64,000 nucleotides of DNA, taken from contig CAZXTR010000001.1 of assembly GCA_964643615.1 (NCBI GenBank), forward strand, positions 1,923-65,922. The letters are read 5' to 3'. Below, one piece after another: positions 8,814 through 48,922 of the stretch. Position 1 is the stretch's first letter. Every line of letters begins with the position of its first letter. This stretch comes from an uncultured Lactobacillales bacterium (GTDB lineage Bacteria; Pseudomonadota; Alphaproteobacteria; CAAHEQ01; UBA3637). The position numbers and the translations under genes are program-made. A model generated the notes under the pieces. The model saw only the letters and a list, made by a program, of their open reading frames with translations. It was not told where the DNA came from and ran no database searches.

Positions 8814-8902
8814 TTTTTATTTCCTCTATTTTTAAAATAACTCTTTTAAAAACACTTGTCAAAAAGAACGTGATTATGTATGATGAACGTTAGGAGATAT
8901 AA

Positions 8903-8979
8903 GTTCGTGTAGCTCAGCAGGATAGAGCGCAGGATTCCTAATCCTGAGGTCGTGGGTTCGACTCCCGCCACGAACACCA
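8903..8979 (+). tRNA. tRNA-Arg (anticodon CCT)
   Basis: Hand-folded cloverleaf. Acceptor GTTCGTG/CACGAAC is fully paired, D-stem GCTC/GAGC, anticodon stem CAGGA/TCCTG, loop TTCCTAA, T-arm GTGGG-TTCGACT-CCCGC, discriminator A, encoded CCA. Confidence 0.9.
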
Positions 8980-8991
8980 TAGGGGCAATAG

Positions 8992-10263
8992 ATGTTAGCA
9001 ACAAAACCAGAAGAAAATTTGATTAATGCCTTGGATCGCATAAGGGGCGTTTCTACTCCTTTTTTGGGGATTTACATTGCAATGTCAAAATTAACCCCAA
9101 ACAACCGAGGCTATCGTCAATTGGAAATTGTATCCCGATTATTTAAATCCTTGACAACCACAGAACAAAGTCGCTTATTTTTGCTTTCCAACAAAGATAT
9201 AGCCTTTATTACACCGAAATCTTCGCTAAACACTGTTGAAGAAATTTTATACCAAATTCGAACTTTATTCGCAGACGATCCTTTTTTGACAGAAAAAAAC
9301 AAAACCTCTTTTCAACACGTTTTTTTCTTGGACAATGAATTGGATGCGTTTAAACAATTGGTGTTTCAAAAAAATAAAGAGTCGGATAGAATACTGTCGC
9401 CCTCAAAGGAAATCAACCCCCTCTCTCCAGAAATATTAGAATCTGTTGTTAATCGTTTGGAAAAATTAGAGGCCATCCACTTTATTCGTCGGCAATCCGT
9501 TTTGTCTTTCCACCCCAAGTTTGGAAATCATTTTTTATTTCAAGAATTTTATACTTCTATCTCTCATTTGCAACAAAAGCTGTGCCCAGCGTATAGCTTG
9601 CTGGCTGAAAAGTCTTTATTTTTTCAATTAACGCAAACTTTGGATAAGCAGACGTTGCTCGCTTTAACTCATTTTAATTTAAACGAATATCCACCAGCCA
9701 TCAGTCTCAATTTAAACATATCGAGTTTGTATACTGCGGTTTTTCAAGAATTGTCCCGAGTATGGCCTACACCATTGATTATTGAATTACAACTTGCAGA
9801 TATTTTTCACAACTTAAAAACATATCAAGATGCCTATAAAAAAATGCACGAAATGGGGCATCAAATATTGATCGATGGATTGTCGCCTTTGGATTTAGAT
9901 TGTTTGGATTTTTCGATTTTACAACCCGATTATTTAAAAATCAATTGGGACCCAGAGTGGAAAAAAGAAGGTAAAGCCGAGTTGTTAAAACCTTATATTA
10001 ACAAAACTTATTTAACTATTGTGTTGACACATTGTAGTTCTGAAGATGCTTTAATGTGGGGGCAAAAAGCGGGCGTTTTTTCTTTCCAAGGGCATTACGT
10101 TGATGCTATCTTGGGAGCGATGATTAAAAATAGTTGCACTTTTGGCCAAGAATGTACACTTGCTTCATGCATGACGTGTCGACGTTCTTTGTCGCCACAA
10201 GTCCGCAGCCAATGTGTCCATTTGAAACATTTAGACGCCAACCCAAAAATGAAGGCGATTTAG
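8992..10263 (+). CDS. Hypothetical protein with a truncated GGDEF-like region and a degenerate EAL-like domain (paralogue 1)
   Basis: 423 aa. C-terminal half aligns by eye to the EAL fold, with QGHYV ending in place of QGY, but the catalytic motifs are replaced. N-terminal region resembles the distal half of a GGDEF domain (LFLLSNKDIAF in place of RxGGDEF). Paralogous to the next ORF. Confidence 0.5.
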   Translation: MLATKPEENLINALDRIRGVSTPFLGIYIAMSKLTPNNRGYRQLEIVSRLFKSLTTTEQSRLFLLSNKDIAFITPKSSLNTVEEILYQIRTLFADDPFLTEKNKTSFQHVFFLDNELDAFKQLVFQKNKESDRILSPSKEINPLSPEILESVVNRLEKLEAIHFIRRQSVLSFHPKFGNHFLFQEFYTSISHLQQKLCPAYSLLAEKSLFFQLTQTLDKQTLLALTHFNLNEYPPAISLNLNISSLYTAVFQELSRVWPTPLIIELQLADIFHNLKTYQDAYKKMHEMGHQILIDGLSPLDLDCLDFSILQPDYLKINWDPEWKKEGKAELLKPYINKTYLTIVLTHCSSEDALMWGQKAGVFSFQGHYVDAILGAMIKNSCTFGQECTLASCMTCRRSLSPQVRSQCVHLKHLDANPKMKAI

Positions 10264-11466
10264 ATGATTTCAACGCGCGAAGAATTTGTTTCTTTTTTAG
10301 AAAAAACACAAATGACATCAGCCAAATGGTGGATTTTACACATCCGTATGAGACAGTTGGAAAAAGTGTTAGAAAGCGGACGACTTTTGGACGTAGCACA
10401 AATGTTGCGTACTTTCGAAAAAGGTAAACTGGGTCGGCTATTTGAAATAGGGGGAGATATTTTTATTTATTTTCCTCAAACACGCGAAGACGATATGCTG
10501 GCTTTAATCGTCAAAATTAAGTTTTTGTCGGGACCTCGTCTTAAGGATAAATTCGCATTTTATACCATTTACCAACTACAAACGCAAATGGATGATTTGC
10601 TTGATTTATTAAAACCTCAAGAAGAGAAAAAAGAAGTGGAGGCCTCCACTTTGCAAACAACGCCTTCCTCCACTGTCACAACCCCGATTTTCCAAGAACC
10701 TCCATCATTTATGCCATTTCGCCCAATTTTGTTGGCTCAATTAGAAAAAACGTTACTTCAAGCAGACTTGTCCAACATTATACGCAACCAACCAGTTTGT
10801 GCAATTGTTGGGAAATCACCCCCTTTAGAATTGTTTAAAGAAGTTTATGTTGCTATCACCGATTTGATAAAAACTTTGTGCCCCAACGTTGATGTGCGTC
10901 GTTCTCCGCACTTATTCAATCGATTGATGGAAACTTTGGATAAGCGTGTTTTAGAAAATGTTGCCCACCACGATGGGGGAGCTTACCGTAAAAATTTCAG
11001 TTTAAATTTATCTGTCAAGAGTTTATCCACTGAAGATTTCCTTCGTTTTGACGAAAGTTTAACTGCTGCGAATAAAGAAACTATTTTGTTGGAAATTAAA
11101 CAAAGCGATATTTGTACAAACCTAGCTTCTTTTTTGTCTGTACGAGAAAAAATACAGCGAAAAGGATATCGTTTTTGTATGGACCTTGTCACCTTTGATT
11201 CTTTAGCGTTAGTACAAAGAGAAAAATTAGGCCTCGACATGATAAAAATCATTTGGTCTGCTGATATATTGAATAAACCATTATTGGATTTGTCCAAAAA
11301 AGCCATTCAAAAAACTAATCCGGAAAGGTTAATCCTTTGCCATGTTGACGACAAAAGAGCCATTGACTTCGCCCAAAATCTTGGCATTTCAATATTCCAA
11401 GGTTACTATATCCAAAAACTTTTGTACAAAACGCCTAAAGCCGTACGCATTAATCGACCTACATAA
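10264..11466 (+). CDS. Hypothetical protein with a degenerate GGDEF (GGDIF) region and a degenerate EAL-like domain (paralogue 2)
   Basis: 400 aa. [13 protein letters not shown] matches the RxGGDEF strand with E replaced by I. An EAL-like block is present: QPVCAIVG...[24 protein letters not shown] in place of EGVE, and QGYYI. The start ATG abuts the stop of the previous ORF (TAGATG). Confidence 0.55.
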
Positions 11467-14071
11467 AATCAATTGAACCGTGACAATGTTTAAATTTTTT
11501 GCCACTTTCGCACGGACACAAATCATTACGTCCTATTTTGGAAAGGTCAATATTTTCTGGCAAGAAATGTATTTGATTAGGCTTTTTTTGTTCTGGTTCT
11601 GGAGTTGCAACACTCATTTGGGCATGTGTCAAAACAAATGTCACACGTCCTCGCACTGTTTTCAACATATCCGAAAATAATGTGAACGATTCCCTTTTAT
11701 ATTCATTCAAAGGATCCCTTTGTCCATACGCACGTAACCCTATCGCATGTTTTAAAAAACTTAAAACTTGCAAATGTTCTTTCCACGATTGATCTAACAT
11801 CTGTAATAAAACACTTTTTTCCAAAGACCAAACCATATTCTTTTCAAAATCCTGATATTTTTGCTGAATCATTGTATCCGATTCTTGACAAATACGCTCT
11901 ATCATGAGCTCGACAGATAAATCATCTTGTTCTACCCATTGTTCAATGGGTAAAGAAATTGCCAACAAACGATTGCATTCTTTTTGCAACGTTTTTAAAT
12001 CCCATTCCTCGGCGTTTGTTTTGGGAGGCATTGTTGATAAAGCCATATCTTCAATTACTTGGTGACGCATACTTATAACCATATCCGAAACTTGTTTGGA
12101 TTGTAGCAATTCGCAACGTTGCGAGTAAATGACTTTGCGTTGATCATTCATCACATCGTCATACTTTAATAAATTTTTCCGAATGTCAAAATGATACGAT
12201 TCAACTTTTTGTTGTGCTTTAGCAATTGCTTTTGAAATAAGAGGGCTTTTAATGGCTTCATCTTCTTTGAATCGAAATGTTTTTAACAAACCTTTCAACC
12301 TTTCTGCTCCAAAAATACGCATTAAGTCATCTTCTAAAGAAACATAAAACTTAGAACGTCCAGGATCGCCTTGACGGCCAGAACGTCCGCGCAATTGATT
12401 ATCAATGCGTCGGTTTTCATGACGCTCTGTCCCAATAACGTAAAGTCCTCCAGCTTCTAGAACAATTTGACGCCCCTCTTTAACCTCGTCTTTTATTTTT
12501 TTTGTAATACGGTTAATGTCTTGTTCATCTGTAATTCCAACAAGTTCTTCTTTAAGACGCATTTCAACGTTTCCACCTAATTGAATGTCTGTTCCTCTCC
12601 CTGCCATATTTGTTGCAATTGTCACCGCATCAGGGGCCCCCGCTTGAGCTATAATAAACGCTTCTCTTTCATGATTTTTTGCATTCAAAATTTCGAATCT
12701 CAAATTCGTTCGCTGACGTAACATTTCTGCTAAACATTCAGATCGTTCAATTGATGCCGTCCCGACCAAAATGGGTTGGTGCTTCGCATGGGCTTTTTCG
12801 ATCTCACGAATAATCGCTTTATATTTTTCTAAAGCCGTTCCATAAATTTCATCATTAAAATCATCACGTGCCAAAGGTCTGTTCGTCGGGATTTCAATTA
12901 CCCGTAAACTATAGGTGTTTTCTAACTCACCAGCCTCAGTCATCGCAGTTCCTGTCATCCCTGCCAATTTTGGATACATTCGAAAATAATTTTGAAAAGT
13001 AATAGAAGCCAATGTTTGATTTTCTGCCTGAATCGTCACATTCTCTTTAGCCTCTAACGCTTGATGTAAACCGTCCGAATAACGACGCCCTTCCATCATG
13101 CGCCCCGTAAATTCATCAATAATAACAACCTTGTCATCTTTCACAATATAATCGACATCGCGCGTAAACATAAAATGTGCTTTTAACGCTTGCTCTGTGT
13201 GATGGACAAAAGAAACGTTTGCTAAATCATATAAGCCCCCTTGGATTAATCCCGCCTCTTGTAACAGTTGTTCTATATAAACATTGCCTACTTCTGTAAA
13301 GGTGATTTGTTTGTTTTTTTCATCTTTTTCATAATGTTCAGAGTGGATTTTACACATCAATTTATCTACTAATCGGTAACGCTCTGAAGAATCTTCCGCA
13401 GCACCTGATATAATTAAAGGAGTACGTGCCTCATCAATTAAAATACTATCGACTTCGTCAACAATAGCATAATAAAAAGGTCTTTGAACCATTTCTTGGA
13501 TTGAAAAACGCATATTGTCTCGTAAATAATCAAAACCTAACTCATTATTCGTACAATAAGTGACGTCACAAGCATACGCATTTTGCCGTTCGGCCGTTTC
13601 TAATTCATGATAGACACACCCTACCGTTAATCCTAAAAAGCGATAAACTTGGCCCATCCAATCTGCATCACGCCTTGCCAAATAATCGTTTACCGTAACA
13701 ACATGAACCCCTTTCCCCGCCAACGCGTTTAAATAAACAGCCAAGGTTGCTACCAACGTTTTACCTTCGCCCGTTTTCATTTCAGCGATTTGACCTTTGT
13801 GCAAAACTATACCGCCAATTAGTTGAACATCAAAGTGGCGTTGTCCCAGTGTCCTTTTAGAGGCCTCTCGCACCGTTGCGAAAGCGTCAACTAACAAATC
13901 ATCCAACATTTCCCCTTTAGCAAGACGTTCTTTAAACCAAGGGGTCCGCGCACGCAAATCTTCATCCGAAAGTCTTTCCATTTCAGGTTCAAGCGCATTG
14001 ATTTTTTGAATTGTTTTCTTTAATTTTTTAATATATCGATCATTCGATGAACCCAGAACCTTTTTGAACAT
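11459..14071 (-). CDS. secA: Preprotein translocase ATPase SecA
   Basis: 870 aa with the DEAD-like motor motifs ([10 protein letters not shown]) and a C-terminal zinc-binding [14 protein letters not shown]. Confidence 0.95.
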
Positions 14072-14300
14072 AAAGCGCGTAACCTTTCCAAAATAAAATG
14101 TTATTCGTTAATAGATATAGTCTTTATAAGTAAAAGTCAAGAAATCTCTTTGAAATGAATTGGCAACAACGCACTTTTATATCAGCACTTTTCCAAAACA
14201 AGTCAAAGAAATATTGCTATTTCGCATAAAAACGTTTAATACCCTTTTTATTCAAATAATCTCCAACTTGTTTTCATTAAATGAGATAACAACGTAAGCC

Positions 14301-15110
14301 CTATCCTTTAAGATATTCGGCGATTTTCAAAACATCTCCGCTGGCTTCAGCATTAGGATACGCAGACAAAATAGAACTTTGTGCACGAATACTATCCCGT
14401 ACGCGCGTATCACGTCTAATAATCCCCGCCAATTCAGGTGAAATTTTCAAAAATCCTTGGCACGCTTTTAACAGCGTGGAATAAGTCTTTTCTCCCTCAC
14501 GGTAAGTATTCGCCGAATTAATGACAATTTTTATTGTAATATCTGGATTTTCTTTAGATATGATTTTAATAAAAGCATAAGCATCTGTCAATGAAGTTGG
14601 TTCGTCAGTACATACGACTAACAAAGTTCCTGCATTCTCGGCAAAAAGACGCACTGCTTTTTCAACGCCTGCACCCAAATCAATAATTACCTTGTCGTAT
14701 CTAGACGCCAACAATTGTAAATCATCAAAAATTATTTGCAATCGAGATAAAGGTATGTTTGCCAAACTCCCCGAACCAGACCGCCCAGCAACAACATCAA
14801 ATCCATACTCTGGGCATGGGATAATCGCCTGAGTCAAAGGAACTCGCCCTGTAATTACAGACCCCAAATCAAAAGGCGTCACCAGTCCCAATTGAATGTC
14901 CACATTAGCCAAACCTAAATCTCCATCAAACAATAATGTTTTCGTTCCGTCCATTGCTAATGCGTGTGCCAGAGAAATAGAAAACCATGTTTTACCAACA
15001 CCTCCTTTGCCTGAAGCTATAGCAATCATATTACGTCCCTTATGGCGCTCTGACGCTTTGGGTGCCATTTTCAATTTTTGCGGTAAAGAAAGAATGCGTG
15101 AAATATTCAT
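14301..15110 (-). CDS. flhG: MinD/ParA-family ATPase of the FlhG (FleN/YlxH) type
   Basis: Deviant Walker A SGKGGVGKT; 269 aa; immediately downstream of flhF, as in flhF-flhG pairs. Confidence 0.7.
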   Translation of the reverse strand: MNISRILSLPQKLKMAPKASERHKGRNMIAIASGKGGVGKTWFSISLAHALAMDGTKTLLFDGDLGLANVDIQLGLVTPFDLGSVITGRVPLTQAIIPCPEYGFDVVAGRSGSGSLANIPLSRLQIIFDDLQLLASRYDKVIIDLGAGVEKAVRLFAENAGTLLVVCTDEPTSLTDAYAFIKIISKENPDITIKIVINSANTYREGEKTYSTLLKACQGFLKISPELAGIIRRDTRVRDSIRAQSSILSAYPNAEASGDVLKIAEYLKG

Positions 15111-15119
15111 TTTCCCCTC

Positions 15120-16064
15120 TTATTCTTTTGATAACATCATTTGAGCCAAAGATTGTGCGTCTATCGGACAAAGGCCTTGAGAAACATGTGGGCTTATTCC
15201 TGCATCACACAAACCTAACGAATGCACTTGAGCTGCATATAAAACACTGCCAAACCGTCTTGCTAAATCTAACCGCGTTGCTAATAACCGCTTACATCCT
15301 AATGGTAAAAAAGCTTCCACCATATCTATCGATTCAAAAGCGTCCATTCCTGCCGACATCACTAAAACAGGTTCTAACCCATTGATGTCTTTTTTCATGT
15401 TTTTTAAAAACTCAATATCAAATGACGAAAATGGATTAATTCCTGGGCTGTCAATCACTATCATGTCTACATTTTGACGCACATTTTCAATTGTTTCTTT
15501 TAAAAGTTCTGGCTTTTGAATTTTTATCAATTCAACCTCTAAAATTTGGGTAAAAGCAGACAATTGTTCTACTGCTCCTGCGCGTTTCATATCTGTTGTA
15601 ATAACAGCTACTTTTCTCCCAGAAATTTTAGCTCTGACAGCCATTTTTGCTACTGCAATAGTTTTACCAGAACCGCTAGATCCAACCAACATAAACGCCC
15701 TTTTCGCAGTGTGCGAAGGCAATGGATAAAATTTGAAAACTCGTTCTAATCCCATACTCAACAGCGCCGTTTCATCTTTTTTTTCACAACCATAGCAAGC
15801 CAATAAAATACGTTCTATTAAAATATCTGGGACACGATGAAATTCAAGATTTTCACGAATAGTGTGTAATGATTTTTCCTCTGCAGGACCAAACAAAGCT
15901 TCTTCAATTTCTTTTTCGCTGGTAGTTTCTTCAACCCCAACGGTTAAACGTACACCATCTTTCACATGTTGATTGGATATAATTAAAACATCACTACCGA
16001 AATCTTTTCGAATATTCTCCATAGCCGAGGCCACTGACTGTGCAACGTATGTTTTAATCTTCAT
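15120..16064 (-). CDS. flhF: Flagellar-type SRP-like GTPase FlhF
   Basis: 314 aa with GTPase motifs G1 GSSGSGKT, DTDMKRAG and an NG-domain layout like FtsY/Ffh. Paired with a MinD-like gene. Confidence 0.75.
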   Translation of the reverse strand: MKIKTYVAQSVASAMENIRKDFGSDVLIISNQHVKDGVRLTVGVEETTSEKEIEEALFGPAEEKSLHTIRENLEFHRVPDILIERILLACYGCEKKDETALLSMGLERVFKFYPLPSHTAKRAFMLVGSSGSGKTIAVAKMAVRAKISGRKVAVITTDMKRAGAVEQLSAFTQILEVELIKIQKPELLKETIENVRQNVDMIVIDSPGINPFSSFDIEFLKNMKKDINGLEPVLVMSAGMDAFESIDMVEAFLPLGCKRLLATRLDLARRFGSVLYAAQVHSLGLCDAGISPHVSQGLCPIDAQSLAQMMLSKE

Positions 16065-16070
16065 AACATG

Positions 16071-16877
16071 CTATCCTTTTTGTCTTTTAAAATAAACAAT
16101 CCTTTCCGAAGCTGGCAAAAGGCTGTTCATTTCGGCTTCTGTGCGTCTGGGGTTTTCCTTTTTATCAATAGAAACTAACCCCACAAGGCATAATTGATTC
16201 AATTTTAATTTTTCTTGTGCGTCTTTTTCCAATCTTGAAGCTAAAGGGAAAAAGACAACATATGCCAATACTGCCCCATAAAATGTAGTCAACAAAGCAA
16301 CCGCCATTGAAGGTCCGACGGTTGTAGGATCTGACAAAGAAGACAACATTTGAACCAATCCTATCAATGTCCCAATTAATCCCATCGCAGGAGCAATTTC
16401 TCCGGCTTTAGACATCACCAACACCGATTGCATTTGAGTTTCATACAAAGCATCCATGCGGTGGCGCATTATTTCTTGACATTCTTTACCTGTCATGCCA
16501 TCAATTAAGCAAGATACTCCTTCCTTTAAAAAAGGAAAGCTTTTTAGTGATTCTATATAGTTTTGACGCAGTTGCAAAATCCCACTTGTATAGGCAATTT
16601 CCGAGCCACGAACCACTTGTAATGCAACGCTACTTGGATGGCGAGATTGATGTACAAAAAGCCTCAACACAGATTGCATACTTTGACCAATTTCTCGCAA
16701 AGAGAAACTAATTAAACAGGCAAAAAACGTACCACCCAAAACAATCCAAAGAGCGGGTTTGTTGATAAAGGAGCCAAAATGGCCACTCATCATAATCGCG
16801 CATCCAATCAAAAAGAAAACGCCAAATAATCCAAGCAATACAGAAATATCAACAAGCGAAAAATTTGAATGTTTCAT
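16071..16877 (-). CDS. motA: MotA/PomA-family stator protein
   Basis: 268 aa with four TM helices. The TM3-4 motif AVALLTTFYGAVLAYVVFFPLASRLE matches the MotA/PomA plug and channel region. No motB is adjacent. Confidence 0.7.
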   Translation of the reverse strand: MKHSNFSLVDISVLLGLFGVFFLIGCAIMMSGHFGSFINKPALWIVLGGTFFACLISFSLREIGQSMQSVLRLFVHQSRHPSSVALQVVRGSEIAYTSGILQLRQNYIESLKSFPFLKEGVSCLIDGMTGKECQEIMRHRMDALYETQMQSVLVMSKAGEIAPAMGLIGTLIGLVQMLSSLSDPTTVGPSMAVALLTTFYGAVLAYVVFFPLASRLEKDAQEKLKLNQLCLVGLVSIDKKENPRRTEAEMNSLLPASERIVYFKRQKG

Positions 16878-16893
16878 TTTTACCCTCTTTTCG

Positions 16894-17217
16894 TTAAGGT
16901 TTTACAATTTCTGTCATTGTCACACACAATTTTTCCCCTCGGTTTACCAATTCACCTTTGGCTATTAAATGATTATTGACATAAATGTCGATTTGTTCTC
17001 CCGCTTGTTTATCCAACTCGACAACAGAATCTGGACCCATTTTCAACAATTCATGCATTGGCATAACTGCTTTTCCCAAAACTGCCGTCACACAAACGGG
17101 AATATTGAAAAGCGCATTTGACGAAGTTATTTCTTCTTGAAACGTATTTGTTATTTTCCCCGTTTGGAGCGTTTTTTCTGCCAATTTTAAAAAATCTGCT
17201 TTTTGTTTTTCATTCAT
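16894..17217 (-). CDS. fliN: Flagellar motor switch protein FliN (SpoA domain)
   Basis: 107 aa; C-terminal SpoA signature VVELDKQAGEQIDIYVNNHLIAKGELV. Confidence 0.8.
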   Translation of the reverse strand: MNEKQKADFLKLAEKTLQTGKITNTFQEEITSSNALFNIPVCVTAVLGKAVMPMHELLKMGPDSVVELDKQAGEQIDIYVNNHLIAKGELVNRGEKLCVTMTEIVKP

Positions 17218-17226
17218 AACCTTTTC

Positions 17227-18243
17227 CTACTCTATCATTTCTTCGGTATCTTCACCTTGAGATAAAATAACATCCCCTTTTAATGCCAAATCTTTAGCAA
17301 TTGCTACAACATCCGACTGAGCTTGGTCCACATCACGCAACCGAACGGCTCCCAAGGCTTCCATATCTTCGGTCAAAATCAATCTGGCTTGCGGAGATAA
17401 ATTGCCCATAAAAGCTTCAACCACACTATCGGAAACTCCTTTTAAGGCTATTGCCATTTTTTGACGTTCTACAGCTCTTAAAACATTTTGAATGGAAGAG
17501 GAATCCAACAAAGCTATATCTTCAAATGTAAACATCATAGAACGCACTTGTTCGGCCACATCACGGTTACGTTCAAACAAAGCCGTCATCAACCGATTTT
17601 CCGTTTTCCTATCTAAATAATTAAAAACGTCGGCAATACGTTCGTGACCTTCCTTACCATCCGATTGTGCTAAAGTGTTCATGAAATCATCATGCAAAGT
17701 TTGTTCAACCTCTTGTAACACATCTTTTTTTACATGCTCTAAACGAAGAAGTCGCATAATAATATCCATGACAAAATCTTCGGGCAAAAATGAAATAACT
17801 TTTGCTACATAATCTGGATTTAATCGCGATAAAATAACGGCGCCTGTTTGCGGATATTCGTTTTTCAAATAGCCCGCTAAAACATCTGCATTAACATTTT
17901 CCAATTTTTCCCACACCGTCCCTCCTGCAGGGCCTTTTATTTCATCTAAAATATTTTTTTGGCGTAAGCCTGGCAACACTTTTTGCAATAACTTTTCCGT
18001 TCTTTCAAATCCTCCACTTAATGACCGTGGTTTATCAAAACTATCCAAAAAATCTTCTAACACTTTTTGCGTCAAAGCCGAATCAACATTACCCAAATTT
18101 GCCATAGTAATTGAAACTTCACGAACTTCATTGTCGTCAAATTGTTCGAATATTTTTTTGACGAAACTTTCTCCTATGGCCAACAAAAAAATAGCAATTT
18201 TTTGACGTCCTGTCAATGTTTCATAAGTCAGAGATTCTGGCAT
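17227..18243 (-). CDS. fliG: Flagellar motor switch protein FliG
   Basis: FliG N, middle and C-terminal domain pattern (MPESLTYETLTGRQKIAIFLLAIGE...). The start is taken at ATG 18241-18243 with RBS AGGAGG 9 nt upstream, 1 nt after the fliF-like stop. The ORF-track start at 18318 would overlap the upstream gene. Confidence 0.85.
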   Translation of the reverse strand: MPESLTYETLTGRQKIAIFLLAIGESFVKKIFEQFDDNEVREVSITMANLGNVDSALTQKVLEDFLDSFDKPRSLSGGFERTEKLLQKVLPGLRQKNILDEIKGPAGGTVWEKLENVNADVLAGYLKNEYPQTGAVILSRLNPDYVAKVISFLPEDFVMDIIMRLLRLEHVKKDVLQEVEQTLHDDFMNTLAQSDGKEGHERIADVFNYLDRKTENRLMTALFERNRDVAEQVRSMMFTFEDIALLDSSSIQNVLRAVERQKMAIALKGVSDSVVEAFMGNLSPQARLILTEDMEALGAVRLRDVDQAQSDVVAIAKDLALKGDVILSQGEDTEEMIE

Positions 18244-18244
18244 G

Positions 18245-19126
18245 TTAGAATCCCTCCTTTGGATCTTGATAAAACCATGAACACAAAACGTTAACCGTTT
18301 CAGACATGTCATTTTCAACTCGCTGATGGACTTTTTTCATTAACGGGGTTTTAAGTTCAACTCTTGTTGGAGATTCTTTTAATAAATCACTCACCACTTC
18401 GGCATTCGCAAAAGCAGGCAAAGACGATTGACTTTCTAAAGGCGTTTTCGACAAAAACCTTTTCCAAACAATCCAAATAAAGCCAATAACAACAGCAAAA
18501 ATTAAAAGGGCAAACTCGGCAAAACGAACCCATGTCGGCGACAATAATGTTTTAGGGACAGAAACATTTTTGAATGGCGTTGTTAAAAATTCAATTTTAT
18601 CGCCTCTTTTCACATCAAAACCAATTGCTGTTTTGATTAATGAATACAAGTTTTCTTTGTCTATCACAGCCCCCGACGAATCAATTAAAACGGCCACTGA
18701 TAATTTTTTAACTACGCCGCCGTTTTGGATTTGTTGAATGTTTTTTTTGGAAAAAATATATGTAATTTCTTCGGCAGTGTTGTTCGTTTTAGACGTTTGC
18801 ACAATCGGCATATCCGAATCTAAAACTTCACGGTTGATAATATTTTGGTTAAAGTCGATATCTGCTTGCACAGAAACCGTAACATTTCCCACTCCGACAA
18901 CTTTTTCTAACATTTGTTGGACAGAACCTGCCAACCTTGTTTCATAAGATTTGCGGACATTTTCAAATGCGAGCACAGAGGCGGACAAGTCACCGTTTTT
19001 ATTGTTTGTAAAGGATTCTTGCGCCTGTGCGGACGAAAAACAAAGGCCAACAAACATTAAAAATGCAATGCTTTTTAACCCTTGTACGCTTATTTTTAAA
19101 CATTTCTTCAAGCACAACCAGAGCAC
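18245..19126 (-). CDS. fliF: FliF-like MS-ring protein, short form. An N-terminal signal/TM is followed by the C-terminal half of the FliF periplasmic domain, a second TM and the cytoplasmic FliG-binding tail
   Basis: 293 aa with FliF-like blocks: VGVGNVTVSVQADIDF, KKLSVAVLID, AIGFDVKRGDKIEF, then TM2 FAEFALLIFAVVIGFIWIVW and a roughly 70-aa tail. About 250 aa of N-terminal periplasmic sequence expected in FliF is absent. Only 120 bp separate this ORF from divergent rluD. Confidence 0.6.
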   Translation of the reverse strand: MLWLCLKKCLKISVQGLKSIAFLMFVGLCFSSAQAQESFTNNKNGDLSASVLAFENVRKSYETRLAGSVQQMLEKVVGVGNVTVSVQADIDFNQNIINREVLDSDMPIVQTSKTNNTAEEITYIFSKKNIQQIQNGGVVKKLSVAVLIDSSGAVIDKENLYSLIKTAIGFDVKRGDKIEFLTTPFKNVSVPKTLLSPTWVRFAEFALLIFAVVIGFIWIVWKRFLSKTPLESQSSLPAFANAEVVSDLLKESPTRVELKTPLMKKVHQRVENDMSETVNVLCSWFYQDPKEGF

Positions 19127-19246
19127 AGACTTTACCTTTCCTTTAAAGACGTTTGTTTATTATGAATAGGCAATGGTGAATTTTTGGTTAAAAAATCAAA
19201 AAATAACCCATTGCAAAAACGATAAAAAAATGGTACAAAGCAAACT

Positions 19247-20179
19247 ATGGAAAAACAAAAAATAATATGCCCTCCTGTTGATGCAACCCAACAAGGTATG
19301 CGATTGGATAAATTTTTGGCAATGTCTTGTGATTTATCTAGAACACGCTTGTCGACTCTAATCAATCAGGGTTTTATCTCCCCGCCACAAGCAAGCGATT
19401 CAAAAGTTTGTGTCGGACAAATTTTCACAATCAACGTCCCCGAATCTGCCCCAGCCATTCCAACAGCCGAAAAAATAAAATTAGACATTTTATACGAAGA
19501 TGACGATTTGATAGTTATTAATAAACAAGCAGGAATGGTTGTCCATCCTGGAGCTGGAAATTTTTCTGGCACATTAGTGAATGCTTTGTTGGCGCACTGT
19601 AGGGATTCTTTATCGGGGATAGGTGGGGTTAAACGACCTGGAATCGTTCACCGCATCGATAAAGAAACCAGCGGTGTTTTAGTCATCGCAAAAAATGATA
19701 AATCGCATCAACACTTAAGTGACCAATTTGCACTTCACAGCATTCAAAGAACATATATAGCTATTGTTTATGGCATCCCTTTACCTAAAGGAACCATCAC
19801 AGGGAACATTGGACGTAACGCGACTAACCGTCAAAAAATGGACATAGTTTCGGGACGAGGCAAACCAGCTATCACGCATTATCATTTGATTAAACCGTTG
19901 TTTAACGGAAAAGCTTCATTAATTGAATGTCAATTGGAAACTGGGAGAACTCATCAAATTCGAGTTCACATGACGTCTATTCAACATCCTTTGGTGGGGG
20001 ATAAAATTTACGGCAATAAGCCGAAGGGAACACCTCCTATCTTAGGGCTTTTCCCACGTCAAGCATTGCACGCGCAATCTTTGGGCTTTATCCACCCAAG
20101 ATTTAATAGATTTGTATCATTTATTGCCCCTCTACCGAAAGATATAGACCTTTTATTACAAGCTTCAGAAGTTTTATAA
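19247..20179 (+). CDS. rluD: 23S rRNA pseudouridine synthase, RluD/RluA family, with S4 domain
   Basis: N-terminal S4 domain (MRLDKFLA...) and catalytic [12 protein letters not shown] motif. Confidence 0.85.
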
Positions 20180-25539: not shown

Positions 25540-26685
<1,146 letters not shown>

Positions 26686-27865: not shown

Positions 27866-28348
27866 ATGACGCACTGTAATAAAAGAAAATACAATGATGA
27901 AGTAACGTCTGCGTTCATCGCACTTTGTTCCAATCCGAATGCAAAAATCGATGGAAAAATCATTAAAAATGCCCTAAGAAATGGGTTCAATCCAAACAGT
28001 CAAGAATTTGATTGTCAAAAAAGAACACCTTTAATGCTTTTAATAGAAAAGCATGCCGAAGTTGTCGAGGTCTTTATAAAGGTTTGTAAAATCAAGGGAC
28101 AGACTTTAGACACAACGAAATGTGATACCTTTGGATTTGACACAAAGGATTATGCAAAGGTCACGCGTTCCGTCTTAACAGATCAAGAAATAGGAAATAA
28201 AGTTTACGATACAATCTCAACTTTAATAAGTTCAGAATCCCAAATTGACCAAAAAATGCGACAACATTCATCAATTCCAGTGCAGAATATTGTATATAAA
28301 CCACGCAACGGACTTAACCAACAACACAAGAGATCGTTGCAAAGATAG
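27866..28348 (+). CDS. Small ankyrin-like protein, family member B
   Basis: 160 aa; NGFNPNSQEFDCQKRTPLMLLIEKHAEVVEVFIK fits an ankyrin repeat. RBS TAAGGA 6 nt upstream. Confidence 0.5.
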   Translation: MTHCNKRKYNDEVTSAFIALCSNPNAKIDGKIIKNALRNGFNPNSQEFDCQKRTPLMLLIEKHAEVVEVFIKVCKIKGQTLDTTKCDTFGFDTKDYAKVTRSVLTDQEIGNKVYDTISTLISSESQIDQKMRQHSSIPVQNIVYKPRNGLNQQHKRSLQR

Positions 28349-41915: not shown

Positions 41916-42701
41916 TTAAAAGCTCCCTTTCCCTGTCATTTTTACCTTTAAAATATCAAACACTTGTTCAGGCGAGAAAAATTGTGGTGCCTTTTTAGTT
42001 AACCCCTCTCGTGTTAAGCGTATTGATTTTTGATATTCTTTTATCATAAACTCATAATATTTATTTTGATTTTCATGATCTTGAACAACCTCTACTGCAA
42101 GGCGTGTTATTTCATCTTTCCCTAACACGTCTAAAAAGAAAGGAGCATAACCTTCTTTAATAAGAAGTAAATTCATCATTAAATTCGCAGTGCGCTTATT
42201 CATATCAGGAAAAGGTTGTGTCAATACAATCCCCTTATAAGTAGAAAAAACTCGTTTTAAAAAGGGTTGTTTTTCGTCAAATTGATTATTAACAATTAGC
42301 CTCATTTGATGCGGGATTTGGCTCGCTTCAACAGGTAAATAGTCCCTTATTTTTTCGCCAGACTTTCTATATTCACCACTTACCGAAATACTTCTTTGTG
42401 AAACCAAAAGTCTTTCTACAATCGTCCCTTTCATCAAAAGTGCATTAATTTCTCGAATGGTACATTCGGCCACAAAATCGTTTGAAGCAATATTATCACG
42501 AATGTAGGCAACGCCATTTTTTAAATTGCGACTAGTAATTGTAATTTCATGTCGCAATTCTTCGCTTAAATCATTATTTTTTATATTCTCTTGACACGAT
42601 TGTTGAAAAAAATCATCCAACAAAACAAAAACAGCCGCTTTTCCTTGTTCGGTCAACGAACTTTTAAATAATTCGCATTCTTTCTGTAACTTAGAAAACA
42701 T
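41916..42701 (-). CDS. Fic/Doc-fold protein with a non-canonical Fic motif ([12 protein letters not shown] in place of HPFx[DE]GNGRxxR)
   Basis: 261 aa. The block [30 protein letters not shown] aligns without gaps to the Fic core [27 protein letters not shown]. The flanking helices are conserved, but the catalytic His and both Gly residues are replaced. Its stop lies 1 nt from the ettA start and its start 3 nt from the dut stop. Confidence 0.6.
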
Positions 42702-47410: not shown

Positions 47411-48043
47411 ATAAAACTCCTTTTTAAAAAATAACACCTCATTTTATGTAATCGAAAAAAGATTGCAACCATTTTGTCACAAAAGCGTCATACAAAATGA
47501 CAATTCCTTCAATATGAACACTTAACAAAATAGATAAAAGTCCTAGCTTCTATATTAAATCTTTTTTTATAGAGGATATATAGCGGGAAAACAATCTTTG
47601 AGCATCGTCTTCTTTATTAAATTAAAAGTATCGAATTTTGAATAGCTGTAGATACTAGATAACCTCATCAATCAATAGATGTTGTTTATTTACCTCAAGA
47701 TGGCTCACAAGCTTTATTTTTTGCAAAAAGAAATGCCGTCTATTGGATAAATGCTTTTCAAAAACAATACATTTTTGTCCAGGGTTTTCATCCTTTAACC
47801 AAAGGGCTTTGAATAATTTTTCAGCACAAATATACGAAACCGATTTTAACAAATTCAGATAAAAAGGCTTTAGCCCTAAAAAAGTAATTATATTGTTGCG
47901 TTATAAAATCCTCAATAAGATTTTCGCTCGCACTTTATGTAGGTGCATCTGTTAAGATAATTTTTATTTTTTAACTAAATATTCATAAAATTCACACTAT
48001 CCTTAGCGGAGGCAGTAGCTTTTCAAATAAGAAAGGATGAGAA

Positions 48044-48922
48044 ATGACTGGCAATGATGTAAAACCATTTGGGATGCCTGAAGAAAATAAAAATGAACAG
48101 ACGGCATCTCCTGAAGTAGAAAAATCTGAAGAAAAAAAGGGTTTCAAAAAAGAGCTGAATAAAAAAATTTTTAGTCAGTTAAGAAAAAAATGGGCCGTTT
48201 GGGTTGCTGCAGTTGGGGTCGCTGTGGGTGGTATAGCTCTTTTGAATAAAGATAAGGGAGATGAAAATACAAACACCCCAAAAGAATCTATGACGGGGAA
48301 AAGTTTTGAAATGAACGGAGCTGAAGGCAATTTAGATGCACTTGTGGGCAATACAACCACAAACTCAACAACCATCATACCAGAAGTTGTTCAACCGGAA
48401 ACAATGGCAACCAATGCCACAACCATCACACCAGAGGTCATTCACCCAGAAACCATTACAAACAACGTAATAACTGTTATGCCAGATATTGCTCAATCGA
48501 TGGAGAATGTAGCGCCGGAAGTGAATGCCAATATGCCCGACTTTGATCAAAGAGATCTTAAGGACCAGCAGATTGAACGTCCATCACCTCGAGAGCGTTA
48601 TTTATCACAGAGAATTGAAGGTCCGTCGCTTCGAGAGCGTTATTTGTCACAGCGAATTGAACGTCCATCACCTCGAGAGCGTTATTCATCGCTTAAAGAT
48701 CTACGGATTGAGCAGGCTAATAATCCTCAAGTAAATGGGATACTAGTCCCTATACAGGAAGAAACAAAAGAAAAATATAACGAAAGATTAGAACGACACA
48801 ATACATTTTTAAATGGAGCAAATAGAAATCCTGTCCGATCCTATTTTGAATTGACACCGCAAGAACAAACGGATTTTAACACTACCCTTCGTCAATTAGT
48901 TCAATCACCTAGAACAAGGTAA
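48044..48922 (+). CDS. Hypothetical secreted/membrane-anchored protein with two blocks of in-frame tandem repeats
   Basis: N-terminal charged region then a TM/signal (AVWVAAVGVAVGGIALL). Roughly 17-aa repeats (TTI[IT]PEV[VI][QH]PET...) and three 14-aa repeats (IERPSPRERYLSQR). Confidence 0.55.
   Translation: MTGNDVKPFGMPEENKNEQTASPEVEKSEEKKGFKKELNKKIFSQLRKKWAVWVAAVGVAVGGIALLNKDKGDENTNTPKESMTGKSFEMNGAEGNLDALVGNTTTNSTTIIPEVVQPETMATNATTITPEVIHPETITNNVITVMPDIAQSMENVAPEVNANMPDFDQRDLKDQQIERPSPRERYLSQRIEGPSLRERYLSQRIERPSPRERYSSLKDLRIEQANNPQVNGILVPIQEETKEKYNERLERHNTFLNGANRNPVRSYFELTPQEQTDFNTTLRQLVQSPRTR
48572..48697 (+). repeat. Three 42-bp in-frame tandem repeats inside the preceding CDS
   Basis: The repeat ATTGAACGTCCATCACCTCGAGAGCGTTATTTATCACAGAGA occurs three times with a few substitutions, encoding IERPSPRERYLSQR, IEGPSLRERYLSQR and IERPSPRERYSSLK. 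Confidence 0.8.

Follow-up and report, generated by a model that had tools for sequence, protein, structure and literature searches.

A six-gene flagellar rotor and placement block with an RBM3-only FliF, conserved in a clade of Alphaproteobacteria

A block of six flagellar genes, lying between secA and rluD in a 64-kb stretch of an alphaproteobacterial genome (64,000 nt of contig CAZXTR010000001.1, hereafter the window), encodes a short FliF, FliG, FliN, a MotA/PomA-like stator subunit, FlhF and FlhG. It is, in our judgement, somewhat likely that this block is a selectively maintained derivative of the early (class II) operon of a polar flagellum, from which a rotor, one stator subunit and the FlhF/FlhG pair have been kept, and that it provides a polar scaffold with neither export apparatus nor axle. 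The six intact, tightly packed minus-strand genes had been recognised in an initial annotation made from the sequence alone. Their coordinates proved exact, and searches with profile hidden Markov models supported all six identifications. On the window, the block and its flanks read:

14301-15110, minus strand, flhG, 269 aa
15120-16064, minus strand, flhF, 314 aa
16071-16877, minus strand, motA/pomA-like gene, 268 aa
16894-17217, minus strand, fliN, 107 aa
17227-18243, minus strand, fliG, 338 aa counted from the ATG
18245-19126, minus strand, short fliF (FliF'), 293 aa, with a GTG start and a GGAAAGG ribosome-binding site upstream
11459-14071, minus strand, secA, flank on the flhG side
19247-20179, plus strand, rluD, divergent flank on the short fliF side

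The intergenic gaps, from flhG to short fliF, are 9, 6, 16, 9 and 1 nt. The mechanically called fliG reading frame extends to a TTG at 18318. Both the start and the ribosome-binding site of fliG had been placed inside fliF; the ribosome-binding site does lie there, but the ATG sits 1 nt past the fliF stop. In related loci (designated below by L numbers), the two genes overlap by 1-14 nt. All open reading frames (ORFs) of the window down to 110 aa in length were read. No further flagellar gene was found among them, and the 64 kb contain no rod, hook or filament gene, which upholds the earlier remark that nothing else flagellar is present. The 229-bp gap between flhG and secA was also inspected, and holds no convincing motB-like small ORF or terminator.

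Short FliF matches the Pfam family YscJ_FliF_C (PF08345, 1.3e-19) and no other, PF01514 being unmatched. In two full-length FliFs, of 509 and 540 aa, the collinear parts are residues 213-509 and 222-539, respectively. Starting from the N-terminus, it is made of a hydrophobic segment (a first transmembrane segment, TM1, or a signal peptide), RBM3 with the beta-collar, a second transmembrane segment (TM2, ~197-225) and a cytoplasmic tail that ends in a FliG-binding helix; W284 is invariant. Out of the three RBMs expected of a FliF, RBM1 and RBM2 are missing. In established MS-ring structures, the inner ring is formed by RBM2 and encloses the proximal rod as well as the type III export gate. Upstream of short fliF, no remnant of the N-terminal half of FliF was detected in the 120-bp gap to rluD, a gap that is conserved among close strains.

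A structural model of short FliF was computed with AF2/AlphaFold on the family alignment. Its mean pLDDT was 68.6, with core blocks (~51-90 and 141-180) at 87-95. The top Foldseek matches of this model were the RBM3/collar chains of Salmonella and Vibrio FliF (E ~1e-12, TM-score to target 0.55-0.61), followed by SpoIIIAG, and among FliF chains the matches were confined to RBM3/collar chains. Loss of the beta-collar was considered and rejected: Foldseek aligns the whole ordered RBM3/collar of Salmonella FliF, and the collar loop alone is shortened. At the sequence level, the best match among solved chains was a 144-residue chain named ‘FliF’ (Protein Data Bank, PDB, 9yh6_Oj and 9ydx_Aa, E 1.1e-8), which outscored Salmonella FliF. 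Rather than a random fragment, short FliF is a member of a conserved family. A word-index search gave 3 matches, and an exhaustive search of 1.84 billion representatives was needed to reveal this family, with ten full-length homologues of 254-318 aa.

For FliG, the N, M and C domains were all matched (2e-31 to 2e-35, Pfam), and the TIGR00207 model gave 231 bits for a cut-off of 226.7. Alignments to PDB chains and to relatives indicate that equivalents of K264, D288/D289 (here E-D) and R297 are retained in the torque helix, R281 being variable. The FliM-binding motif EYPQT...R is also retained, and is identical in flagellated relatives. Distant FliG matches, obtained by scanning contigs for exact 8-residue patterns, came from L002 (40% identity) and from Campylobacterota (~31%). 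FliN (FliMN_C, 1.4e-21; TIGR02480, 85.1 bits, over the cut-off) consists of a SpoA domain and an N-terminal helix, MNEKQKAxFLKLAEK, and this N-terminus is kept in five lineages.

The stator subunit matches MotA_ExbB (1e-22), its top NCBIfam model is NF006527, PomA (6.7e-57), and it aligns with the Vibrio PomA structure 8bri at 3.4e-42. From the alignments with 8bri and within the clade, channel residues P151, T158, T185/T186 and P199 (PomA numbering) are conserved. At the rotor-facing positions R88, K89, E96 and E97 of PomA, T/S, S/G, R/Q and Q/K are found instead in all four motA-bearing lineages. Judging from these replacements, the rotor interface is apparently remodelled rather than lost. 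No B subunit, with its transmembrane aspartate and peptidoglycan-binding domain, was found in the operon or in the 64-kb window.

FlhF is an SRP-type GTPase (SRP54, 1.6e-24; TIGR03499, 1e-38, 134 bits, below the cut-off of 174). Its conserved N-terminus, MKIKTY...FGSD, is positioned as the FliG-interaction domain of studied FlhFs. FlhG belongs to the CbiA/ParA/MinD family, with the deviant Walker A motif SGKGGVGKT, and its best solved relatives are FleN (5j1j, 142 bits) and FlhG (4rz2, 125 bits), versus 71 bits for MinD. Its N-terminus, MNISRILSLP, does not contain the DQAxxLR enhancer motif, which is also missing from flagellated relatives L095 and L096. A degeneration reading was considered for three features, namely the missing arginine of DTAGR in FlhF, the missing DQAxxLR in FlhG, and EYPQ in place of EHPQ in FliG. 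It was rejected because all three are found in L095 and L002 as well, both flagellated relatives. FlhG binds an N-terminal motif of FliM or FliY; by analogy, the clade-specific and co-conserved N-termini of FlhG (MNISRILSLP) and FliN (MNEKQKAxFLKLAEK) may, as a speculation, contact each other directly.

Flagellated relatives of the block were recovered by a metagenome scan seeded with the FlhG alignment. In L095, the order is fliF (540 aa, PF01514 and PF08345)-fliG-fliH-fliN-sigma54 activator-flhA-flhF-flhG, and FlhG and FliG are respectively ~58% and 51% identical to those of the window. L096 and L157 carry flhA-flhF-flhG, and by synteny the flhF of the window is orthologous to the flhF of these three loci. 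The alphaproteobacterial class II fliF operon of L095 shares with the window the order fliF, fliG, fliN, flhF, flhG and the EYPQT of FliG. Also common to both are the G3 motif D-x-x-G-V-N-P-F of FlhF, with the arginine of DTAGR missing, and an FlhG devoid of DQAxxLR. Compared with it, the operon of the window no longer has the 5' half of fliF (the first ~220 residues, RBM1 and RBM2), fliH, the sigma54 activator of late genes or flhA, and has gained motA, between fliN and flhF. The reduced operon thus looks like that of L095 minus its export and late-regulation genes, plus motA. We take the fliF-fliG-flbE-fliN-flbD operon of Caulobacter to be the counterpart of the L095 operon.

Two other loci were looked at in this context. 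L094 (143-2490), GC-rich, has fliH, fliN and flhG side by side, uninterrupted by a sigma54 activator, flhA or flhF, and its FlhG is 63% identical to that of the window. It was considered as a further reduced variant, and rejected: its upstream gene encodes FliH, so it belongs to an export-competent system, in a rearranged operon. In L002 (1-12456, from a metagenome-assembled genome, MAG, labelled ‘Acetobacter sp.’), GC drops from 55% to 39.5% where a fliF-fliG-(218 aa)-fliN cluster starts, which may reflect a chimeric assembly or foreign DNA.

The block is conserved well beyond the window. In at least four other lineages, L085 (GCA_965350215.1), L087 (GCA_964369135.1), L088 and L089, rluD is followed, divergently, by short fliF-fliG-fliN-motA-flhF-flhG; the gene after the module is secA in L085 and, with near certainty, in L088 too. 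The copy in L086 is partial. The annotated start of short fliF in L088 (2537-2640, protein P0024) is probably ~30 codons too early. Identities to the window across the module lineages, with the two flanking genes for comparison, were as follows:

FlhG, 75-86%
FlhF, 57-74%
FliG, 52-64%
FliN, 50-66%
MotA, 48-63%
short FliF, 29-45%
SecA, 71-80%
RluD, 67-73%

FlhG is therefore more conserved across the clade than SecA and RluD. In a canonical flagellated pair, L095 and L002, identity is 33% for the C-terminal half of FliF and 48% for FliG. This ratio is the same as in the module lineages, so short FliF is not unusually relaxed.

At a shorter evolutionary distance, four close strains from four sequencing runs (97.8-99.9% DNA identity) had no stop or frameshift. 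Three of them, divergent enough to be scored (97.8-98.9% DNA identity), were used for the dN/dS comparison that the initial annotation had suggested. Values were 0.10-0.34 per gene and 0.21 when pooled (binomial P = 1.5e-9), in the purifying range and in the same range as rluD and uvrA.

These data bear on the view that the block is no longer functional and is what is left, in decay, of a lost flagellum. Its gene set is indeed incomplete, and its FliF is shortened relative to the canonical one. Against this, no frameshift or internal stop was found in nine loci, gene order is conserved in spite of the 29-45% identity of short FliF, FlhG is more conserved than SecA, and the promoter motif (see below) and coupled gene junctions are conserved. 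The intact reading frames had already been taken as an argument against decay, and the argument is borne out: conserved order and content across lineages, together with a dN/dS of ~0.2, exclude simple decay, and we give the remnant view as a whole almost no credence. In relatives whose SecA is 63-70% identical to that of the window, the module is missing from this position. In L092 (8915-12634, an ‘Alphaproteobacteria bacterium’ MAG, SecA 63%), which also encodes an anaerobic ribonucleotide reductase, rluD directly abuts secA. In L090 (6085-12622, from a Hadza human gut metagenome), an EAL gene pair and PTS genes stand beside secA, without the module there.

Natural gene fusions define what is constant in the module. 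Several matches of 450-510 aa consist of a short FliF (RBM3 and transmembrane segment) joined to FliG M and C, without FliG-N. One such fusion is found in L093, where it occupies the locus of the six-gene form: rluD is followed, divergently, by fusion-fliN-flhF-flhG. Another is found in L174 (GCA_023266845.1, 67% GC), where fusion-fliN-flhF-flhG stands between sciP and ctrA-chpT (CtrA 417 bits for a cut-off of 350, SciP 134 bits). There, in interval 8886-16203, the order is flaF, sciP, the four-gene module, a 134-aa ORF (weakly FliJ-like, 20.7 bits, below cut-off), ctrA and chpT. The L174-type fusion is represented by about ten clusters at 90% identity, one with a MAG label beginning ‘Rhodospirilla…’ and one on a 977-kb contig. 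Neither the L093 nor the L174 cluster contains motA. Thus, the constant core is made of short FliF, FliG, FliN, FlhF and FlhG, and motA is optional. In the L093 fusion, the acidic pair of the FliG torque helix is lost (ED to RQ), and it is kept in the motA-bearing lineages; this small sample suggests that the contact between MotA and FliG matters where motA is present. Other FliF-FliG architectures occur naturally: P0295 (886 aa) is a full FliF (PF01514 and PF08345) fused to a full FliG, P0106 (648 aa) joins a short FliF to FliG N, M and C, and P0296 (665 aa) and P0297 (575 aa) are further variants.

Upstream of short fliF, two promoter elements were recognised:

19176-19191, minus strand, motif TTAACCAAAAATTCAC (TTAA-N7-TTCA, CtrA-box-like), conserved upstream of short fliF
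19159-19164, minus strand, -10-like hexamer CATAAT, 11 nt downstream of the motif

The 16-nt motif, TTAAC-N5-ATTCAC, precedes short fliF in 7 out of 7 lineages (window, L085, L086, L087, L088, L093 and L174), and in these seven, GC-rich L174 included, a -10-like hexamer follows it by 10-11 nt. In L088, both elements fall within the mis-called 5' end of the short fliF ORF. The CtrA box consensus of Caulobacter is TTAA-N7-TTAA. We infer that the operon is probably under CtrA control, because the motif resembles this Caulobacter box and because sciP, ctrA and chpT are the neighbours of the module in L174. The exact motif occurs once in the 64-kb window. Matches with one mismatch number 3, for a chance mean of 2.4, hence no excess. 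One of them, TTAACTAAATATTCAT (47971-47986, plus strand), lies 58 nt before an ORF (48044-48922) for a 292-aa protein with a transmembrane segment and IERPSPRERYLSQR repeats, which may be co-regulated with the module.

How such a module could work is suggested by the assembly of polar flagella. In these, FlhF uses its N-terminal domain to bind FliG, and brings FliF to the pole by diffusion-capture; FlhG then acts at the C-ring (PMC12826062). A scaffold is proposed for the present block because the retained proteins match these earliest, export-independent steps. From a CtrA-type promoter driving the operon, FlhF would be made and, through its N-terminal FliG-interaction domain, would capture FliG and nascent short FliF at the pole. 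Short FliF would oligomerise via RBM3 and the beta-collar into an S-ring-like ring, anchored in the membrane by TM2, and its cytoplasmic tail would bind FliG-N one to one (in the two sister variants, L093 and L174, the proteins are fused). FliG would then recruit FliN, possibly via FlhG or via a FliM encoded elsewhere, and FlhG would cycle on the short FliF/FliG/FliN platform. Such a platform would be a polar, cell-cycle-linked scaffold or regulatory device, and not the base of a propeller. Where motA is present, FliG-C would remain a docking site for stator units, and these could use ion flow to rotate the ring or to signal.

Control of polar division in Campylobacter jejuni would be the best-supported functional analogue of such a platform. 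There, FlhF, FlhG, FliF, FliM and FliN prevent division at the pole, and mutants in single components of the export apparatus, in the rod (fliE) or in sigma54 have little or no division defect (PMC3228812). A repurposed minimal rotor or polar landmark had been one of the options offered in the initial annotation. This option is considerably strengthened by a short FliF lacking exactly RBM1 and RBM2, by the missing fliH, flhA and activator genes, and by the motA-less fusions; the assembly, polar position and use of the module we infer.

Several points weigh against an export-less scaffold. Genes of the export apparatus (flhA, flhB, fliPQR and fliI among them), fliM, motB and flg genes were looked for, and not found, in only ~122 kb from five lineages (the window plus ~58 kb of flanks in four other lineages). 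MotA keeps every channel residue, which calls for a MotB/PomB-type partner outside the operon, and FliG keeps the EYPQT...R motif of flagellated relatives, so that FliM may exist elsewhere. Partner genes are thus in part likely to lie elsewhere in the genome. Since the ancestral-type L095 operon is itself devoid of fliM and motAB, their absence from the window block says little. The presence in L174 of flaF, which encodes a regulator of flagellin synthesis, and of the weak FliJ-like ORF suggests that this lineage may still build a flagellum. The proposed output, scaffolding or division control, is drawn wholly by analogy, and in C. jejuni fliG is largely dispensable for the division role, FliM being needed (PMC3228812).

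Alternatively, the block could be no more than the usual early fliF operon of a flagellum that is complete and motile. Its other genes (flhA/B, fliPQR, fliHIJ, fliM, motB and those of rod, hook and filament) would be scattered, and RBM1-RBM2 would be either dispensable or supplied by an SctJ-like protein encoded separately (a ‘split FliF’). Flagellar genes scattered over the genome are common in Alphaproteobacteria, and here the genome has been sampled over 64 kb only. In Caulobacter, motA and motB bear distant locus tags (PMC7885107), and the intact MotA channel implies that a motB exists elsewhere; the FliM-binding motif of FliG and the L174 neighbours flaF and FliJ-like gene can be read in the same way. 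On the other side, FliF is short in every carrier, and the 120-bp gap to rluD is too small for an adjacent N-terminal half. We know of no functional flagellum whose FliF is devoid of RBM1 and RBM2. In addition, fliH, flhA and the sigma54 activator have gone from the positions that they hold in flagellated L095, the fused variants have neither FliG-N nor a cluster motA, the L093 fusion has no acidic pair in its torque helix, and the canonical rotor-facing charges of MotA are replaced clade-wide. We regard a complete flagellum as unlikely, although well worth keeping in mind.

MotA is also central to a different proposal, namely a rotary or energy-sensing device without axle, in which MotA and a MotB encoded elsewhere would turn or load the ring. 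Stator engagement would be read as a signal, for instance by cyclic di-GMP (c-di-GMP) enzymes, the ring being more than a passive landmark. In its favour, motA has been recruited at the place of flhA in the ancestral-type operon, the channel of MotA is conserved, and only in lineages with motA in the cluster does FliG retain its acidic pair. A precedent exists in Caulobacter, in which mutants without the outer flagellar parts still signal via the inner-membrane rotor, MotAB and DgcB (PMC7885107). Two degenerate EAL-type genes are moreover present in the window, beside secA. However, L093 and L174, without motA, keep the rest of the module, so that torque cannot be its core function. MotA itself is deprived of the canonical charges of the R90/E98 type, the EAL genes are not beside the module in L085, and no motB was found in the window or in related loci. 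We therefore consider a sensing device rather improbable.

A last possibility is that the ring serves a different envelope machine, such as an injectisome or pilus, as an accessory. This has been proposed for the FliF-FliG fusion of Chlamydiaceae, in which a short FliF fused to FliG-M is present with FlhA and orphan flagellar genes, alongside a working injectisome (PMC4768692). No type III, type IV or pilus gene was found in the window or in the flanks of related loci, the constant partners FlhF and FlhG are specific to flagellar placement, and the Chlamydia protein keeps RBM2 and not RBM3. Such an accessory role appears very improbable for the present block.

The surroundings of the module in the window are alphaproteobacterial: they include tolQRA-ybgC-ruvAB, a short HprK/EIIA-Man/NPr set and a CcrM-type methylase, and the closest named relatives of SecA are from ‘Alphaproteobacteria bacterium’ and ‘Rhodospirillales bacterium’ MAGs (62-65% identity). 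The two EAL-type genes (8992-10263 and 10264-11466, plus strand) are tandem paralogues beside secA, whose EAL domains are weak or degenerate (29 and 45 bits, for a Pfam cut-off of 31.3 bits); the proteins may bind or hydrolyse c-di-GMP, and L090, the gut-metagenome relative, has a similar pair near PTS genes. Between 23652 and 29927 lies a run of small lineage-specific ORFs without family match, except for one weak Ank_2 match (27866-28348, E 0.005). In this run, GC falls to 0.33-0.34; the run also includes the CcrM-type methylase gene (25546-26685), whose product has a RAMA domain. Ankyrin-like ORFs could have indicated an intracellular symbiont, which was rejected, the single weak Ank_2 match being its support; a rubrerythrin in the window and the relative from a human gut metagenome point rather to gut anaerobes. 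A Fic/DOC-domain protein (1.3e-8) is encoded at 41916-42701, on the minus strand, adjoining dut and a gene for an ABC-F ATPase.

The block may be a flagellar motor core reused for a purpose other than swimming. A wider form of this proposal, to which we would give slightly less than even credence, is that several alphaproteobacterial lineages have lost the flagellum and kept, as an organelle in its own right, an axle-less and export-less ring of RBM3-only FliF, FliG and FliN, in some cases fused into a single polypeptide and in some accompanied by a stator. Positioned by FlhF/FlhG and controlled by CtrA, the ring would serve polarity or cell-cycle control, such as the prevention of division at the poles, or energy or mechanical sensing. 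If the carriers truly lack the rest of the flagellum, the module would be a natural minimal rotor, and would show which flagellar parts are able to assemble and to remain of use without type III export, rod or filament. It would then amount to a natural experiment on RBM3-only MS-rings and on a covalent one-to-one FliF-FliG stoichiometry, and non-motility roles of FlhF/FlhG and of the MS/C-ring (division-site control, polarity, rotor-stator signalling) could be studied free of motility. If a full flagellum exists elsewhere in these genomes, it would be the first whose FliF is split or devoid of RBM1 and RBM2, which would also be surprising.

Our literature search found no paper describing the RBM3-only FliF family, its FliG fusions, or the six- and four-gene modules, and none mentioning the sample accession SRR10769903. 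The nearest described oddity is the FliF-FliG fusion of Chlamydiaceae (Bergeron 2016, PMC4768692). As here, FliF is shortened and no flagellum is evident, and the FliF-FliG link is covalent, as it is in L093 and L174. The chlamydial protein, however, has RBM2 plus another RBM-like region, is fused to no more of FliG than an M-like part, and coexists with FlhA and an injectisome, whereas in the window RBM3 and the collar are kept, fliF and fliG are separate, FliG is complete, and the partners are FliN, FlhF and FlhG. The L093 and L174 fusions differ from it by combining RBM3 with FliG M and C.

In C. jejuni (Balaban and Hendrixson 2011, PMC3228812), the set required for division control, FlhF, FlhG, FliF, FliM and FliN, is nearly that of the retained genes. 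In that species, however, it is a full flagellum that moonlights and FliM is needed, whereas the window operon has no fliM and keeps a conserved FliG. With the FlhF/FlhG switch that places the flagellum of monotrichous bacteria (PMC12826062), the block shares genes for an SRP-type GTPase and a MinD-type ATPase side by side. It differs by an FlhG without DQAxxLR and an FlhF without the arginine of DTAGR, as in L095; HubP, FimV and FipA were not seen with the FlhF/FlhG system of the window.

Compared with the 5:2 stators PomAB and MotAB (PDB 8bri and 6ykm), the subunit encoded in the block has the four-transmembrane PomA-like fold and the conserved P and T residues of the channel, but the B subunit is missing from the cluster, and the rotor-facing charges are replaced in the clade. 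Finally, reduced flagella of the Buchnera type keep the export apparatus, rod and hook-basal body as an export machine without filament. In both cases, a reduced genome maintains part of the flagellar gene set under selection. What is retained is opposite: rotor, stator and placement genes in the window module, whose operon is devoid of export genes. If the carriers do lack the other flagellar parts, the block would also bear on the dismantling of complex machines, export genes being lost first here, and the insect endosymbionts running the opposite way.

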